Shown: positions 24,416 to 31,599 of the stretch, in pieces
Numbering within the stretch: the first letter of the stretch is position 1
Layout: every line of letters begins with the position of its first letter
Source: Candidatus Thorarchaeota archaeon
Lineage (GTDB): Archaea; Asgardarchaeota; Thorarchaeia; Thorarchaeales; Thorarchaeaceae
Direction: 5' to 3'
NCBI GenBank assembly: GCA_008080745.1
Contig: SHMX01000005.1
Coordinates: forward strand, 180,001 to 212,000
Length of the DNA: 32,000 nt
Notes under the pieces: model-generated
What the model saw: the letters and a program-made list of their open reading frames with translations, nothing else
Database searches by the model: none
Told to the model about the DNA's origin: nothing
Translations under genes and position numbers: made by a program

Positions 24416-24443
24416 GAATGGTGTCGGATTTCCGATACCATTC
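24416..24443. terminator. Stem-loop between the convergent aminotransferase and bshC
   Basis: gaatggtgtcgg-attt-ccgataccattc: 12-bp stem with one G-U pair. Confidence 0.6.
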
Positions 24444-26158
24444 TACACCATGAAGTTGATGAAGAGTGTAGCACCGTTTTTAAGACCCTGTGAGTGTGCA
24501 CGCTGATATGGTCCGAACAAATCGGTGAATCCTGAGTTCAATGACCATTCTATCCATGACCATGCTGACTCTTGACTAAGCTTATCTGGAGCATATTGGC
24601 CGAACGTCCAACTTAGATACTTCTCAATATCTAGTTTCAACATCTGTAACTCTTCATATTTTCCTCCAGAAGTTTCTTCTATCTCTTTGATTATTTCTTC
24701 ATAGGCATCATTGAGTTGAGAATGAACTGAATGAAGATACTGGGAGAATTCCTGAACTGCATCATTCATCTTCTGATCATTTTCTTTTCGTCTGAATTTG
24801 TTGATTCTTCCACTCAGTTTAAACAAGTCACGATCATGAAGCACTGGAATGTCTTTTTTCTTGAGCTCCTTTCCTAACTCCTCATTCCAAGGTGTATTAA
24901 AATAGGTTCTAGGATATCTAATAAAAGCTGGAAAAGGCTCATCCATCTCTTTTGCAGCTGGGATGACCTGTGCATAATATGCCGTTTCTCCAGGACCACC
25001 TACATGTGCAATTGTGGGTATTATTGTATCAATAGCAAGTTGCCTTGAATCAACTCGAAGGGAGAGCTGCTCTGCATGTTCTTCCAAATCTGGTTCCCCT
25101 TTTTCCACCTCTATCTGTATTTTTTCACCACAAGATGGACATTTCCCCTCTAATATTGCATTAGAACCTTGATCACGATAAACAAGCTCAGTCCTACTAT
25201 TGTTACAATCCCTATTTGGACACTCATAGAGAAAAGGCACATAGTCCTTACCTCTGGACCCTGCCCCTGTAGCATACCCCTCTGCCCCTATCATTTGTGT
25301 TGCATTTTCATGGGCCCGTAGAAATGCACTACGTTTGTCTTGACTAAGTAGGTATTCCAAACCACTAAGAAGGGCTCTTCGGATTCTTTTATCTCCCGCA
25401 GGGACCAAAGGTATCCCAAGATTGCCTTCTATATTGAATAGGGAACCAAGAATTCTGGTTGCCCATTCTCCTAATGTTTTTGAATTGACAAATGCCTTGC
25501 GAGTAACCGTTAATGCATGTTCAAGACGCTCATCAAGAAGTATTCTTGCTGTTCCATCAAGAACTTTGAATAGAGGTCTGTAACTTGATTTAATCGATTC
25601 TTCTGCCTCTCTGTACCACTCATAATCTGGGAGCGGAAGATGATTTACAGGGGAGTATTCATAACCTTCTGGAACTGGGATGCTGATGAGATTCCCATTT
25701 TGTCCGATATTGGGTGTTCTGATATTGGTTAATTCAGATTGCACAACGTCATAGTCTGCAATACAGAAATATGGTGTAACGGTTATTCCATTCTGGGTAC
25801 AGTATTCCGATATTGAAACTGCTGATGCAGCTTTGTTTAGAATATACCCGGGTCCGCCCATGACTATAGTCTGGTGTGCAGATTCAACTGCACCATCATG
25901 CAGATTCATTATTGAACTATGTACTTTGGGTGTCAAGCAGTTCATTTCTCTGTTTATCTCAACTAACACCCTCTGAATCTCTTTCACTCGTTCCTGTGAA
26001 AACCATGGTGACTTTTTATATTTTGCAAGTATATCTGGTACTCTGGTATGCAACCCCCCCATTTCTAGCACTGGCAGATTATAGAGATACTTCGCTAAGT
26101 CTTCGTTCTTTTGTTCCCAGATATAATCTTGATATATGTGATAGACACTTGGTTCCAT
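24443..26158 (-). CDS. bshC: Bacillithiol biosynthesis cysteine-adding enzyme BshC-like
   Basis: AHQTIVMGGPGYILNKAASAV (cf. GQQ..LF.GP.Y...K), FCIADYD, and R..AIDTIIPTIAHVGGPGETAYYAQ (cf. RP......P..AYVGGPGE.AY.AQ). Directly downstream of bshA. Confidence 0.85.
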   Translation of the reverse strand: MEPSVYHIYQDYIWEQKNEDLAKYLYNLPVLEMGGLHTRVPDILAKYKKSPWFSQERVKEIQRVLVEINREMNCLTPKVHSSIMNLHDGAVESAHQTIVMGGPGYILNKAASAVSISEYCTQNGITVTPYFCIADYDVVQSELTNIRTPNIGQNGNLISIPVPEGYEYSPVNHLPLPDYEWYREAEESIKSSYRPLFKVLDGTARILLDERLEHALTVTRKAFVNSKTLGEWATRILGSLFNIEGNLGIPLVPAGDKRIRRALLSGLEYLLSQDKRSAFLRAHENATQMIGAEGYATGAGSRGKDYVPFLYECPNRDCNNSRTELVYRDQGSNAILEGKCPSCGEKIQIEVEKGEPDLEEHAEQLSLRVDSRQLAIDTIIPTIAHVGGPGETAYYAQVIPAAKEMDEPFPAFIRYPRTYFNTPWNEELGKELKKKDIPVLHDRDLFKLSGRINKFRRKENDQKMNDAVQEFSQYLHSVHSQLNDAYEEIIKEIEETSGGKYEELQMLKLDIEKYLSWTFGQYAPDKLSQESAWSWIEWSLNSGFTDLFGPYQRAHSQGLKNGATLFINFMV

Positions 26159-26169
26159 GAATTAACATC

Positions 26170-27342
26170 CTATTTTTCTACTGCTTCTTCAAAGACCTTC
26201 TCATACAGTGGCACAATTGCTTGTGCTGAAAATGATTCCTCTACTCGCCTTCTACCTGCCTTTGCATATTTTTTCCTACTCTTTTCATCATTGAGGAGAT
26301 CGATAATGGCCTCAGCAAATTCTTCCTGTTCAAATCCCTTTGTTACCTCTCCATCAATACCGGGACGGACCAATTCTGGGATTCCTCCTGCAGGGGTTGT
26401 GATGATTGGTAATTCACAAGCCATTGCCTCAAGAAGGACCAACGGCATTCCCTCCATGGTTGAGTTCAGTAGGAATATGTCTGCTGCAGACATTATTTCT
26501 TGGATATTACTCTTAACACCTAGAAGGTGTACATTATTGCATAAATCCAATTCTTCGATTTTTCGTTCTACCTCTATACGTGTGGGTCCATCTCCAGCAA
26601 TTATCATTCGGGTTTCTGGTTGATGGTCTACTACTATACGCATGATTTCTATGAGATCAACTACCCGTTTCACCTTTCGAAAATTGGATGCGTGGAAAAG
26701 AACTTTTTCTTCGGGGAGAATGATTTCCGGGTCCTCCACATTTCTTAGTGAAACACAGCCGCTTTCTACCACTAATCTGTATCCTTTTACAGGCTGAAAC
26801 TCTTCTACATCTATGAAGTTTGGAATGACATGAATTTCACGACTGATTTCAAGCTCGTTGATGGCTTTATTTTTTAGAAACTCGGAAACCGCGGTAACAC
26901 CATTCGCTTCTTGAACTGTATGTTGAACTACAGGTTTGTAAGCGGGATCCAAGCCAAGAGTGTGAACGTCCGACCCATGAAGAGTCACTACATATGGAAT
27001 ACCTGAGATTTCTCTTGCCATATATGCGGACATAGCATGAGGGATAGCATAGTGTGCGTGGATGATATCTAATTTGGCCTCTTTTACAACCTTCAAAATT
27101 TTTGAAGCAAGTGCCATAGAATAGGGCGGACCCACCGCTTTGAAAAGAGGATAATCGAATCTATCAACAAGGTCCACATAGATTCCCCTTGGTTGTTCCC
27201 ACATTAGAGAGAAGGGTCTCTCATAGGTGATGAAATGGATAATATGTTCTCGTTTTGCTAGGGCATGACTCAATCGGGTAGCTAAGTAACCCGAACCCCC
27301 AACAGAGGGATACATGTTTACGCCTATTCTCACGCAATTCAC
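26170..27342 (-). CDS. bshA: N-acetyl-alpha-D-glucosaminyl L-malate synthase BshA (GT4)
   Basis: IGVNMYPSVGGSG..AT.L, HFITY..PF, DIIHAHYAIPHA, VTLHGSDV, HASNFRKVKRV, EGMPLVLLEAMAC. Confidence 0.92.
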   Translation of the reverse strand: MNCVRIGVNMYPSVGGSGYLATRLSHALAKREHIIHFITYERPFSLMWEQPRGIYVDLVDRFDYPLFKAVGPPYSMALASKILKVVKEAKLDIIHAHYAIPHAMSAYMAREISGIPYVVTLHGSDVHTLGLDPAYKPVVQHTVQEANGVTAVSEFLKNKAINELEISREIHVIPNFIDVEEFQPVKGYRLVVESGCVSLRNVEDPEIILPEEKVLFHASNFRKVKRVVDLIEIMRIVVDHQPETRMIIAGDGPTRIEVERKIEELDLCNNVHLLGVKSNIQEIMSAADIFLLNSTMEGMPLVLLEAMACELPIITTPAGGIPELVRPGIDGEVTKGFEQEEFAEAIIDLLNDEKSRKKYAKAGRRRVEESFSAQAIVPLYEKVFEEAVEK

Positions 27343-27441: not shown

Positions 27442-28107
27442 ATGACTGAGGAATCTGCTTGTGTTCTCGTAATCATAGCTCATCCAGATGATGAATCTCT
27501 TGGAGCGGGAGGGACAATACGTCAGCATGTCATCAACGGTATTCCTGTCGACGTGCATTGTATGACTGGAAACGAGGAACGGAACGAAGAGCTGAAGAAA
27601 GCATGTTCGGTTCTTGGAGTTAGAAATCTCTATCTGAGTGAACGAGAAGATTTTGATATTGACATGAGTATGGTTCATGAGGTTGTGGCAACCATTCTAA
27701 AGTCGCGCCCAACCATAATCATCACGCATTCTCAGGAGGATTATAACCGAAACCATCAGATTTGTGCTCAGATAGTAGAGCAGGCTGTGGAGTGGGCCTC
27801 TCATATTACCATATTTGACAATGCTCATCGTGTAGAACGCATCTATCACATGGAGATTAATTCTCTGCATCCTCATCCTCATGTGCATGTGAATATAACT
27901 AACTCCTATTCAGAAGCTTTGCATGCACTAAGACAACATAAATCTCAGACTTCAAAGGCAAATGATTTCTACGAAAAATTGTATGATGCACGAACTAGAT
28001 TGCGCGGCGTACAGGCTGATGTAAAACGGGCTGAGGCATTTACAATATCATTGCCAAAGCACGCTGGTCCATTCTATCCTGAGAACAGTGTTGAAACACT
28101 GGTATAG
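27442..28107 (+). CDS. bshB: PIG-L/LmbE family deacetylase, BshB-like
   Basis: IAHPDDESLGAGGTI, R..E...AC.VLGV, RPTIIITH...D...H, R..RG...V..AEAF. Divergent from bshA. Confidence 0.75.
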   Translation: MTEESACVLVIIAHPDDESLGAGGTIRQHVINGIPVDVHCMTGNEERNEELKKACSVLGVRNLYLSEREDFDIDMSMVHEVVATILKSRPTIIITHSQEDYNRNHQICAQIVEQAVEWASHITIFDNAHRVERIYHMEINSLHPHPHVHVNITNSYSEALHALRQHKSQTSKANDFYEKLYDARTRLRGVQADVKRAEAFTISLPKHAGPFYPENSVETLV

Positions 28108-28112
28108 GTCCG

Positions 28113-28511
28113 TTAACTGCCCTCTGCCTTCTTTCTGCGAGCTGCGAGAAGGGCTTTGAGCTCACCCATCATTCCGCCTCCACCGCCTCCGCCAGCTGGC
28201 TTGGGTGGGGGTGCTCTAGCTATTGGAGCCTTTGCCATTGCTGGAGCTGCATCAGCTGCATCGGATGGACCTGATGAAGATGGTGTAAATGACCCTGATG
28301 CTAGTTTACTCTGCATAGAACCTATCTGTGACTCTAAACCGCCGACCTCACTTCTCAGAGTTGCTACTTCGGATTGTAGACCTTCAATAAACTCGATTAG
28401 TTTCTTGGTAATGGTACTAACAACTTCTCCAAGTTCGCGTAATTTCTCTTCTGTTGGATCTTTTAGAGCCCATTCGAACTCTTCCATAATGAAATCTTCA
28501 TCGTCACCCAT
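28113..28511 (-). CDS. Acidic N-terminus / coiled coil / Pro-Gly linker / basic amphipathic C-terminal helix protein (VASP-FAB/WH2-like)
   Basis: MGDDEDFIMEEFEW, heptads LQSEVATLRSEVGGLESQIGSMQSKL, and C-terminal APPPKPAGGGGGGGMMGELKALLAARRKKAEGS. TTTATA box about 50 nt upstream on the minus strand. Confidence 0.75.
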   Translation of the reverse strand: MGDDEDFIMEEFEWALKDPTEEKLRELGEVVSTITKKLIEFIEGLQSEVATLRSEVGGLESQIGSMQSKLASGSFTPSSSGPSDAADAAPAMAKAPIARAPPPKPAGGGGGGGMMGELKALLAARRKKAEGS

Positions 28512-28632
28512 ATGTATTCAGACCCCTAAGTAGGCATATCTGATTTTATTTAATTGTGCTATAAACCTTGTTTGCTTATGGTTGTCTTGCATGATAGACT
28601 TTGTCATTTCGCAATATGAAGTCACTGCTTTT

Positions 28633-30018
28633 TCAAAGCTTCTTCATGGTTTCCTCTACCACTGATTTCGCCAGTACAAGAATTTCATGGGTTCTTGCCT
28701 TGTTAGCTGCCTCACAGGTGATACGAATGATTGGTTCTGTCCCTGAGGGTCGTACGAGAAGCCATCCATCCTCAAGAACTATTCCTAGTCCATCTACAGT
28801 TAGAACCTCAACAACATCGCCCATTGATTTAGGTAAATATTCAGAGAGTTGTTCCATCGCTTCCTCTTTCTGATCATTAGGACAAGGCACTTTTGTTTTT
28901 TCAAGGGGATAGACTGGAATCTCTGCAATAAGCTCACCGAATGCTTTTCCTGTTTCAGCCATACTTTCAAGAATCTTGCAAATTGCTAAGAATGGCTCAG
29001 GTGCAAGATGGAACTCGGGAAAGATAAAGACTCCACAGGCCTCGCCTCCCATAATCGCCTTTTCCTCCTTGATTTTCACTGCGACTTGGATGTCACCGAC
29101 AGGAGTTCGGATTGTCTTTCCACCCGCTCTTTGAACAGTTTCATCAAGGACCTTTGAACTGTCCACAGTGGTGACAATTGTCTTATTCGATTCCTCTCTA
29201 AGATAGCTCTTAGCAATCAGAGCAATGGTTCGGTCTCCCCGAACAACCTCTCCTGTTTTTGTCACAAAAACAACTCGGTCCGAATCGCCGTCGTGCGCAA
29301 TTCCCAAATCAGCCCCTGTCTTCTGGATGAGTTGAATTAGGTCTGTTAGTGATTCTTCTTCAGGTTCAGATTTTCTTCCAGGAAAATGACCATCAAGTTG
29401 ACTATTTATGCTGACTACTTTACATCCCAATTCTTGCATCAGGTATGGAGTTAGCACACAGGCAGCACCATTACCAGGATCAACTATCACCTTGTATCTC
29501 TTAGACCTGATCAGGTCTGCTCTGCACTGGTTGAGTAAGCGTGAGATATGCTGACTTACTAGGTTTGGAATCATGGATTCTTTTCCGAGTTGGTCCCAGT
29601 CTGCCACCAAGTATTCTTTGGAATGGTATATCCGTTCCAATTCGGACTCGATATCCTGTGTGAGACCCATGCTATCAGCACCCCAGAACTTGACTCCTGT
29701 GTATTCCGGTGGATTATGAGAAGCTGTCACCATCAGGCCCGCATCATATCCAAGCTCTCTGGTCATCAATGCCAAAGTTGGTGTAGGGATTATTCCTGTG
29801 CGTACCACATTCACCCCGGTTGACAACAATCCCGCTGAAAGAGCATCTGCAATCATCAGTCCGGTAATTCTAGCATCTCTTGCAATCAAGACGGTACCTC
29901 TTTTCAGATAGGTGCCAAGCGATTTACCCAAACGCATTGCCATCTCTACATCGAACTCTGTTCCGTATACCTTTCGGACTCCGGTCGTTCCAAAGAGCTT
30001 CTTAGTCATAGTGCCCAC
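28633..30018 (-). CDS. glmM: Phosphoglucosamine mutase / phosphomannomutase (alpha-D-phosphohexomutase)
   Basis: LFGTTGVR, TASHNP (phosphoserine), DGDSDR (metal loop), GEACG, LVRPSGTEP.IRI. GlmM versus PMM/PGM specificity is not resolved. Confidence 0.85.
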   Translation of the reverse strand: MGTMTKKLFGTTGVRKVYGTEFDVEMAMRLGKSLGTYLKRGTVLIARDARITGLMIADALSAGLLSTGVNVVRTGIIPTPTLALMTRELGYDAGLMVTASHNPPEYTGVKFWGADSMGLTQDIESELERIYHSKEYLVADWDQLGKESMIPNLVSQHISRLLNQCRADLIRSKRYKVIVDPGNGAACVLTPYLMQELGCKVVSINSQLDGHFPGRKSEPEEESLTDLIQLIQKTGADLGIAHDGDSDRVVFVTKTGEVVRGDRTIALIAKSYLREESNKTIVTTVDSSKVLDETVQRAGGKTIRTPVGDIQVAVKIKEEKAIMGGEACGVFIFPEFHLAPEPFLAICKILESMAETGKAFGELIAEIPVYPLEKTKVPCPNDQKEEAMEQLSEYLPKSMGDVVEVLTVDGLGIVLEDGWLLVRPSGTEPIIRITCEAANKARTHEILVLAKSVVEETMKKL

Positions 30019-31056: not shown

Positions 31057-31599
31057 GTGAGTAGTAGCTATGATTTCCTGTTCAAGGTAGTGGTGCTAGG
31101 GGAAGGCGCAGTGGGTAAGACTGCTATTGTTACACGCTTCTCTCATGGTTTCTTCCGTACCGATTACAAGACTACTATTGGTTCTCAATTTGCAGTCAAG
31201 AATCTAGAGATTCCTAGTGGGAAAAATGATTCCCTTACAGTGAAATTGCAAATATGGGATGTTGCAGGCCAGTCTCGTTTTCAAATCCTACGTCCCATGT
31301 ATTACCGTGGGTCCAGTGGTGGTATCCTTGTCTATGATGTGAGCCGACGGAGGACCTTCATTGTCCTTGAGGAATGGCTAGAAGAGTTAGAAAAGGCTCT
31401 TGGTAAGAAGATTCCTCTGGTACTTGTTGCCAACAAGACTGACTTACCTGATCGTGTTGTTGATCCTGCAGAAGGTAAGGAATTTGCAGAACGTCACGAT
31501 ATGCCTTATGTCGAATCAAGCGCAAAGACGGGACAGGGGATAGTGGATATCTTCGAGCAACTGGCTAAGACTCTTGTTGAAGAACGAACTACAGAATGA
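31057..31599 (+). CDS. Rab-like small GTPase
   Basis: G1 GEGAVGKT, G2 TTIG, G3 WDVAGQ, G4 NKTD, G5 SAK. Rab-family-like segments KLQIW, RFQIL, YYRGS, LVYDVS. Confidence 0.93.
   Translation: MSSSYDFLFKVVVLGEGAVGKTAIVTRFSHGFFRTDYKTTIGSQFAVKNLEIPSGKNDSLTVKLQIWDVAGQSRFQILRPMYYRGSSGGILVYDVSRRRTFIVLEEWLEELEKALGKKIPLVLVANKTDLPDRVVDPAEGKEFAERHDMPYVESSAKTGQGIVDIFEQLAKTLVEERTTE

Follow-up and report, generated by a model that had tools for sequence, protein, structure and literature searches.

A pan-Asgard family of small coiled-coil proteins with a VASP-like C-terminal helix and actin as a tentative partner

Which proteins assemble or bundle filaments for the actin of Asgard archaea, the closest archaeal relatives of eukaryotes? 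The Asgard actin regulators named in the full-text literature searched are profilins and gelsolins only, with WH2-like LKKT motifs inside the gelsolins, and that literature describes neither a stand-alone VASP-, WASP- or WH2-like Asgard protein nor the family reported here. The question is raised by a gene at positions 28113-28511 (minus strand) of a 32,000-nucleotide stretch of DNA from a Candidatus Thorarchaeota archaeon (assembly GCA_008080745.1, contig SHMX01000005.1, positions 180,001 to 212,000 of the forward strand), hereafter referred to as the window. The gene encodes a protein of 132 amino acids (aa) whose C-terminus resembles the F-actin-binding (FAB) segment of VASP, and an earlier reading of the sequence by a model, referred to below as the original prediction, proposed a minimal oligomeric binder, bundler or elongator of actin filaments. 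We find that the gene belongs to a family spread across the entire Asgard phylum. Most safely stated, its members are phylum-wide, abundant modular adaptors, with a head and stalk predicted to oligomerise and an invariant, probable docking helix held on a flexible arm. What the helix docks on, and above all whether it is actin, is the most tentative part of this description and is weighed below.

The gene and its family across the Asgard phylum

The open reading frame (ORF) comprises 132 codons followed by a TAA stop at 28113-28115. The gene is genuine and more than a chance reading frame, because a search of 5.8 billion proteins returned 175 homologues at E ≤ 0.01, none of them annotated and nearly all from metagenome-assembled genomes (MAGs) of Thorarchaeota (Thor), and because the motif [ML]M[GS]ELK is found in 119 of the 120 homologues listed. 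A 125-codon ORF on the opposite strand (28156-28533, plus strand) was rejected as a shadow ORF, its proline run being the reverse complement of the glycine codons.

The translation agrees with the layout originally described: an acidic, Trp-bearing N-terminus (DDEDFIMEEFEW), a heptad coiled coil, a Ser/Ala/Pro linker and an end made of APPPKPA, seven glycines and MMGELKALLAARRKKA. An AlphaFold2 model computed with 38 homologues contains helices at residues 3-16, 19-71 (predicted local distance difference test score, pLDDT, of 82-94) and 114-130, with pLDDT below 50 at residues 75-112. The N-terminal head (residues 1-38; 28398-28511, minus strand), as delimited by the Thor and phylum alignments, consists of an acidic stretch followed by the block (D/E)EFEWALKDPTEEKLRxLGEVVSxIT. 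It runs into the long helix and heptad coiled coil (residues 19-71; 28299-28457, minus strand), a presumed oligomerisation stalk whose hydrophobic residues, read from the sequence, lie 3-4 positions apart from L24 to L70 with one stutter. Trimeric coiled coils predominate among the top profile matches of the stalk in the PDB (reovirus sigma-1, trimeric autotransporters, HA2, Lpp and cartilage matrix protein), a hint that the stalk may form a trimer. A slight likeness of the head to BRK1/HSPC300 or to the WAVE N-terminal helix was considered and dropped, with no WAVE-complex chain among the best 60 PDB profile matches listed. The disordered Ser/Ala/Pro linker (residues 72-113; 28173-28298, minus strand), marked by low pLDDT and varying in both sequence and length in the family, ends in the APPPKPA and glycine run and leads to the C-terminal basic amphipathic helix (residues 114-129; 28125-28172, minus strand), which is near-invariant in the alignments and is supported by the AlphaFold2 model and by profile scores. 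After the basic cluster comes a short acidic/polar tail, EGS (28116-28124, minus strand), which is longer and more acidic in relatives and contains a run of six Asp in the homologues of Lokiarchaeum ossiferum and MK-D1.

Searches against known families returned little. No Pfam domain was found in the protein, and for the whole protein, the tail and distant homologues Pfam gave coiled-coil noise only. In the PDB, whether searched by sequence or by profile, neither the whole family nor the tail matched anything beyond generic coiled coils, designed peptides and, by chance, a helix of twinfilin. A protein-atlas search returned only unnamed Asgard clusters. No RNA run was listed for the Thor gene, which was present only in two marine-sediment DNA runs, possibly the origin of the DNA itself.

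Within Thor, conservation is concentrated in two blocks, the head given above and the tail [ML]MGELKxLLAARRxK, while the coiled coil and linker vary. The first test proposed in the original prediction, the conservation of the M..EL..LL..RRK block, came out in its favour, this block being one of the two most conserved parts of the protein. M115, E117, L118, K119, L122-R125 and K128 of the tail are invariant in 38 Thor sequences, as are F12, W14, A15, L16, D18, P19, G28, I34 and T35 of the head within Thor. Phylum-wide, Leu118 of the tail is invariant, and Glu117 and Lys119 nearly so.

When 1.84 billion cluster representatives were searched exhaustively with a profile, distant relatives of 117-175 aa with the same layout were recovered, and the full-architecture matches were exclusively of this type; three long matches (P0288, P0355 and P0363) were bacterial coiled-coil false positives. 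Outside Thor the head reads MAEEFxxFL...P.EEK..L..I..K.M and the tail of the distant relatives NP.S[LA]R[GS]AIM[GSD]ELKxLFAKRK. The Thor protein shares with these relatives the head, the heptad stalk, the disordered linker and the helix motif [RK]xx[ILM]xxELKx[LIA][FL]x[KR]x[KR]. The Thor Trp is not kept outside Thor-like forms and lies within a folded, conserved head that elsewhere begins MAEEF, and the proposed resemblance of the N-terminus to Arp2/3-binding A motifs found no support.

A six-frame search of the phylum detected a family match in 340 of 400 Asgard genomes (82 of the 90 of high quality), with strong full-length matches in at least 16 family-level groups. Four weaker matches (L023, L028, L031 and L032) were read and, having the family's tail, proved to be genuine members. 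Those members that carry names belong without exception to Asgard (Thor, Hel, Sigyn, Frey and Hod lineages and Promethearchaeota), and no member was found outside Asgard among the 5.8 billion proteins and 1.84 billion representatives searched. The worry expressed in the original prediction, that homologues might occur mainly in actin-less prokaryotes, can be set aside, the family being found in actin-bearing Asgard only.

In the window's own genome the head profile strongly matches the family gene alone, and no other ORF with the tail motif was found at E ≤ 1 in this genome, L. ossiferum or MK-D1, gelsolins and profilins included; the lone extra tail-motif match, in a 23-codon frame of the own genome (E 0.17), is a chance one. 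Two deep-branching long forms, L021 (440 aa) and L033 (281 aa), carry the tail motif in two or three tandem copies. The first two copies are roughly 25-35 residues apart in both; the third copy of L021, at the C-terminus, comes after a long region rich in Lys and Glu. A sister family was also observed, in which the MAEEF head and coiled coil lead into another helical domain, of ~90 residues, where the ELK helix would otherwise stand. Its members are a 221-aa protein (G000:C4:84672-85334), a 173-aa ORF on contig C3, a 192-aa ORF of L. ossiferum (L041) and L022. It would seem that the head and stalk can be reused as a base for various end pieces.

One member of the family is also seen to be expressed. 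Neither the L. ossiferum nor the MK-D1 homologue had an exact match in the sequence collection searched. The L. ossiferum member, P0390 (152 aa, 16.1 kDa), follows an Elf1-like gene whose product is 24.03 kDa. In the tables of a preprint, molecular weights and gene order agree with the sequences analysed here for the L. ossiferum actin, gelsolins and a 38.1-kDa GTPase; GNAMCCOK_02218 is listed there at 24.01 kDa, and GNAMCCOK_02268 at 53.82 kDa fits the 53.86-kDa ORF 50 genes further on. Because the neighbour weights match at both 02218 and 02268, we infer from gene order and neighbour molecular weights that P0390 is GNAMCCOK_02219. That protein was detected at a high level in all 16 whole-proteome samples of the preprint, its mean log2 abundance of 18.47 exceeding the 17.38 of the profilin Pro2 and approaching the 18.64 of GelX, both of which are enriched with Lokiactin.

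The C-terminal helix and the case for actin

Human VASP has its FAB at residues 259-278, its G-actin-binding (GAB) site at 223-APGLAAAIAGAKLRKVS-239 and its tetramerisation domain at 343-380 (PMC10340426); the FAB sequence quoted in the original prediction was correct. Aligned by eye without gaps, residues 110-129 of the window protein are identical to the FAB at 12 of 20 positions. For a profile-based comparison, a hidden Markov model (HMM) was built from 33 diverse family C-termini, and published peptides were scored against it. The VASP FAB obtained 13.4 bits, ungapped over 18 positions, a bare-peptide score that is inflated because the length model of HMMER favours a bare peptide, and it was the sole eukaryotic motif tested that the family profile scored. 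None of the 4427 shuffled FAB sequences scored reached 13.4 bits (maximum 11.8), and among 3090 long ORFs of the own genome (973,000 residues) the family gene alone exceeded this value, the next ORF scoring 5.6 bits. Judged by these scores, the likeness is real, dependent on residue order and, of the motifs tried, specific to the FAB. Its shortness prevents it from demonstrating homology, and convergence or chance would be at least as likely an origin.

The likeness also does not place the protein in a known family. The helix at 114-130 is not followed by an LKK[TV]-type motif, the RRKK cluster extending it directly, and the Thor protein has no EVH1 domain detectable with Pfam. The FAB likeness aside, the protein is outside the WH2 and Ena/VASP families by every defining feature tested in the sequence. 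One further possibility for the tail, an ESCRT-III MIM1 motif, was rejected. The MIM1 consensus is a C-terminal (D/E)xxLxxRLxxL(K/R), and L118, L121, L122, R125 and R126 misfit the L-x-x-R-L-x-x-L-K/R spacing in any register.

The reading that we favour is a small oligomeric adaptor with a docking helix, for which actin would be the likeliest single partner, an assignment that we make tentatively and with less than even confidence. Actin is rated in this way because of the FAB likeness, the polyproline arms of some relatives, the tandem-motif long forms and the restriction of the family to actin-bearing organisms. The own genome encodes an actin (P0121) and a two-domain gelsolin. Asgard profilins and gelsolins act on rabbit actin (PMC9433394), hence actin surfaces are conserved. 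In most lineages outside Thor the linker forms a polyproline arm, as in Loki-type members, e.g. GAPPPPPGAPPG, with runs of up to eight prolines, and PPPPP is present in 11 of 30 distant representatives. The tandem copies of the deep-branching members, ~30 residues apart, are spaced as in tandem WH2 nucleators. The near-invariant E-L-K and the acidic tail that follows would be easier to reconcile with contact to a specific protein than with simple binding of lipid.

Mechanistically, the head and heptad coiled coil would bring chains together, probably as trimers, and the flexible linker would present the C-terminal basic amphipathic helix for docking on the partner. On actin, the helix might occupy the hydrophobic cleft or run along the surface of the filament, like the VASP FAB and WASP C/WH2-type helices, with the RRKK cluster contacting acidic actin residues. 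Several tails per oligomer could then bundle filaments or supply subunits to them, and in the relatives that have one the polyproline arm might recruit profilin-actin.

A number of results weigh against actin as the partner. Firstly, the motif comparison is narrow and sensitive to context. The VASP GAB scored -1.3 bits against the family C-terminal HMM and the N-WASP VCA region (residues 420-505; PMC5609757) -0.5 bits. Placed within 380 random residues, the FAB falls to ~7 bits, with an E of ~1.5e-4 per protein, or ~1 protein in 6000, and a few human proteins would be expected to equal the match by chance. Secondly, the expected relation to WH2 or VASP profiles was not borne out. WH2 (PF02205) gave no hmmscan match at E ≤ 10 for the full protein, 20 C-terminal segments or 10 distant homologues, in a search whose HMMER filters may drop very weak matches, and PDB searches with tail profiles returned no WH2, VASP or WASP chain. 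Thirdly, polyproline has been lost in the Thor form. PPPPP is found in none of 120 Thor members and the longest proline run of the window protein is PPP, so that the profilin-binding tract attributed to it in the original prediction is missing. Fourthly, the tails of Lokiarchaeia GTPases described below would fit a targeting or anchoring device equally well, and at the Thor and Loki-type loci inspected there is no conserved actin-related neighbour. Finally, although it is more abundant than Pro2 and about as abundant as GelX, GNAMCCOK_02219 is absent from the rows covered here of the preprint's anti-Lokiactin co-immunoprecipitation (co-IP), which are sorted by ratio, span log2 values of +10 to -1.06 and precede 841 further rows. 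As far as those rows go, its absence speaks mildly against a stable Lokiactin complex under the conditions used. WH2- and FAB-type contacts are weak and salt-sensitive, for which reason the absence is not decisive.

Other possible partners for the helix

Could the helix instead dock on a protein other than actin? We consider it possible, if somewhat doubtful, that the tail binds some other protein, such as a roadblock/longin-type regulator or a further component of the small-GTPase machinery of Asgard archaea; the free protein would then be a stand-alone copy of a GTPase tail, competing with that tail for its target or scaffolding the target. The family module is indeed not confined to small proteins. 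The last 110 residues of P0303, an Arf/Rag-like GTPase, are the family module, and GTPases of this type, about 410-480 aa long, end in head, coiled coil, proline linker and end helix. In the largest Loki-type family, each of the 135 genomes has full-length P0303-type matches, tail included, and at least four copies are common. Three of these matches, L048-L050 (genomes G130-G132), were read and are GTPases that carry the head-like segment and coiled coil as well as the proline linker and the end helix. The module, as judged from these sequences, can stand alone or serve as a GTPase tail. These tails are true homologues of the window protein, sharing with it a head-like segment, a coiled coil, a Pro-rich linker and an end helix with the ELK core, and differ from it in that the window protein stands alone without a GTPase domain. 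A full-alignment search for longer fused forms was negative at E ≤ 0.001, which is weak evidence as word crowding limits the search.

The near-invariant polar E-L-K likewise implies a specific protein interface, and the Lokiactin co-IP, in the rows covered, did not enrich the homologue from L. ossiferum. A gene for a Ras/Roc/Arf-family small GTPase (31057-31599, plus strand; PF00071, E 4e-49) lies ~2.5 kb from the family gene and is nearby in three other Thor genomes; it says little, however, because the whole region is syntenic. Against a GTPase-related partner, Thor has the free protein, whereas the fused GTPase is found in none of 85 Thor genomes at E ≤ 1e-25, and neither the FAB likeness nor the polyproline arm is explained. 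In a separate check on the Lokiactin co-IP, the enriched 'Arf' GNAMCCOK_04696 (38.1 kDa) was considered as a carrier of the tail and rejected, being a 329-aa GTPase that lacks it.

Membrane targeting is, in our judgement, rather unlikely, but like a GTPase-related partner it is a serious rival to actin. Here the tail would be an amphipathic polybasic helix of the MinD/FtsA type, or similar to the polybasic ends of non-prenylated small GTPases, and would tether the protein flexibly to the membrane as a coiled-coil scaffold. The helix does have a basic character (net charge +3 to +4, with +4 in the window protein), has a narrow hydrophobic face and sits at the end of a long flexible linker, and one source labels two homologues 'uncharacterized membrane protein'. 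The same tail is found on Arf/Rag-like GTPases, which need a membrane anchor, and archaea, to our knowledge, lack CAAX prenylation. Yet the hydrophobic moment is low (0.28-0.33; 0.31 in the window protein), as is the mean hydrophobicity (0.12-0.20; 0.20 in the window protein), and an invariant Glu lies inside the helix. In 120 of 120 Thor members the residues after the helix form an acidic tail, and that tail, poly-Asp in L. ossiferum and MK-D1, would repel anionic lipids. Moreover, what is kept across the phylum is residue identity, beyond mere residue character.

That the likeness to eukaryotic motifs is due to chance, and the protein a generic structural coiled coil without any docking role, is very improbable: the match is short and of low complexity, with the per-protein E of ~1.5e-4 noted above, and Pfam yields coiled-coil noise only, but nothing in the protein is better conserved across the entire phylum than the end helix, and a functionless helix would not be kept in this way.

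Known systems, genomic neighbourhood and significance

For an oligomeric adaptor with actin as its candidate partner, the closest comparison is with Ena/VASP. The EVH2 region has the same succession of Gly run, amphipathic helix and Arg/Lys cluster, and the three kinds of module (oligomeriser, Pro-rich arm and basic helix) are all present in the family, the arm in Loki-type members. To this extent the proposal of VASP's three modules in another order fits the Loki-type members. The remainder differs: the family has neither EVH1 nor a GAB/WH2-type KLRK site, the order of modules is reversed, the Thor form is without polyproline, and the coiled coil is N-terminal, heptad and trimer-like, unlike the C-terminal right-handed tetramer of VASP, no helix of that tetramer type being present. 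WASP-family factors (WAVE, WASH and WHAMM/JMY) share with the family the order of coiled coil, Pro-rich arm, amphipathic basic helix and acidic tail, while the family lacks LKK[TV], a Trp in the acidic tail and any Pfam WH2 match. We know of no Arp2/3 complex described in Asgard archaea. At the residue level, the Loki-type RGAIMGELK has the R-x-x-hydrophobic-hydrophobic spacing of the N-WASP sequence GRDALLDQIRQG (PMC5609757).

Comparisons can also be made with prokaryotic proteins, among which the original prediction knew of nothing VASP- or WASH-like. This is right in so far as none is described for Asgard archaea in the literature searched, and is not strictly true of prokaryotes at large. 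Burkholderia BimA combines a trimeric coiled coil, a Pro-rich stretch and WH2, and Vibrio VopL/VopF combine a Pro-rich stretch, tandem WH2 and a dimeriser. Like the family, these proteins join an oligomeriser, a Pro-rich stretch and short actin-binding helices, the helix of the family being a candidate for such a role. In contrast to the family, whose members would be cytoplasmic housekeeping proteins of organisms with their own actin and have no recognisable WH2, they are secreted or surface proteins with recognisable WH2 that act on host actin. Crenarchaeal CdvA, in which a coiled coil and a disordered linker precede a C-terminal peptide for docking on CdvB, offers a parallel outside the actin field. 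In both cases an oligomer of helices would hold out, on a flexible linker, a short and conserved docking peptide at the C-terminus; the sequences are unrelated, the family has no PRC barrel, and the organisms and the partner are different.

Upstream of the family gene are a Shine-Dalgarno-like AGGGGT (28522-28527, minus strand), 10 nucleotides from the ATG, and, 48 nucleotides from it, the TATA-like box of its own that had been predicted, TTTATA (28560-28565, minus strand). Both are sequence features only; a similar TTTATAG is found upstream in L004. The gap to the upstream PGM/PMM gene is 121 nucleotides. In four Thor genomes the family gene stands between this PGM/PMM gene and a PIG-L / GT4 / BshC-like set, the whole region being syntenic. 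In the window the set comprises a BshC-like gene (24443-26158, minus strand; PF10079, E 1.3e-17), a GT4 glycosyltransferase (26170-27342, minus strand) and a PIG-L deacetylase (27442-28107, plus strand), and the PGM/PMM gene encodes a GlmM-like mutase (28633-30018, minus strand). Taken together, these genes have the appearance of a Thorarchaeote pathway for a low-molecular-weight thiol of the bacillithiol type, and the gene set is syntenic in three other Thor MAGs. The Loki-type family gene has a different neighbour, adjoining an Elf1-like zinc-ribbon gene (L036, 37-657, plus strand; also L007, L008 and L037) that carries a long acidic C-terminal extension. In the preprint's Lokiactin co-IP, the Elf1-like protein of L. 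ossiferum, GNAMCCOK_02218, is mildly enriched (log2 1.36, adjusted p 0.034).

The family is a good candidate for a missing actin assembly or bundling factor in the closest archaeal relatives of eukaryotes, because it is small, abundant and phylum-wide and joins an oligomeriser, in most lineages a polyproline arm, and an invariant, VASP-like basic helix. A bolder version, which we consider improbable, would have the pan-Asgard family as a native actin-assembly factor, with a trimeric coiled coil, polyproline arms that gather profilin-actin and a helix related to the FAB or to WASP C that passes subunits on to filaments. In that case the Pro-rich and actin-helix cassette of eukaryotic VASP and WASP could have evolved from it. 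A 2026 study of crawling Lokiarchaeum treats formins and Ena/VASP filament polymerases as eukaryotic machinery. If the family does bind actin, the design that couples a Pro-rich arm to an actin-binding helix would predate eukaryotes. If it does not, it would still be a previously undescribed, phylum-wide module shared with Asgard small GTPases, and would point to how these GTPases are targeted.

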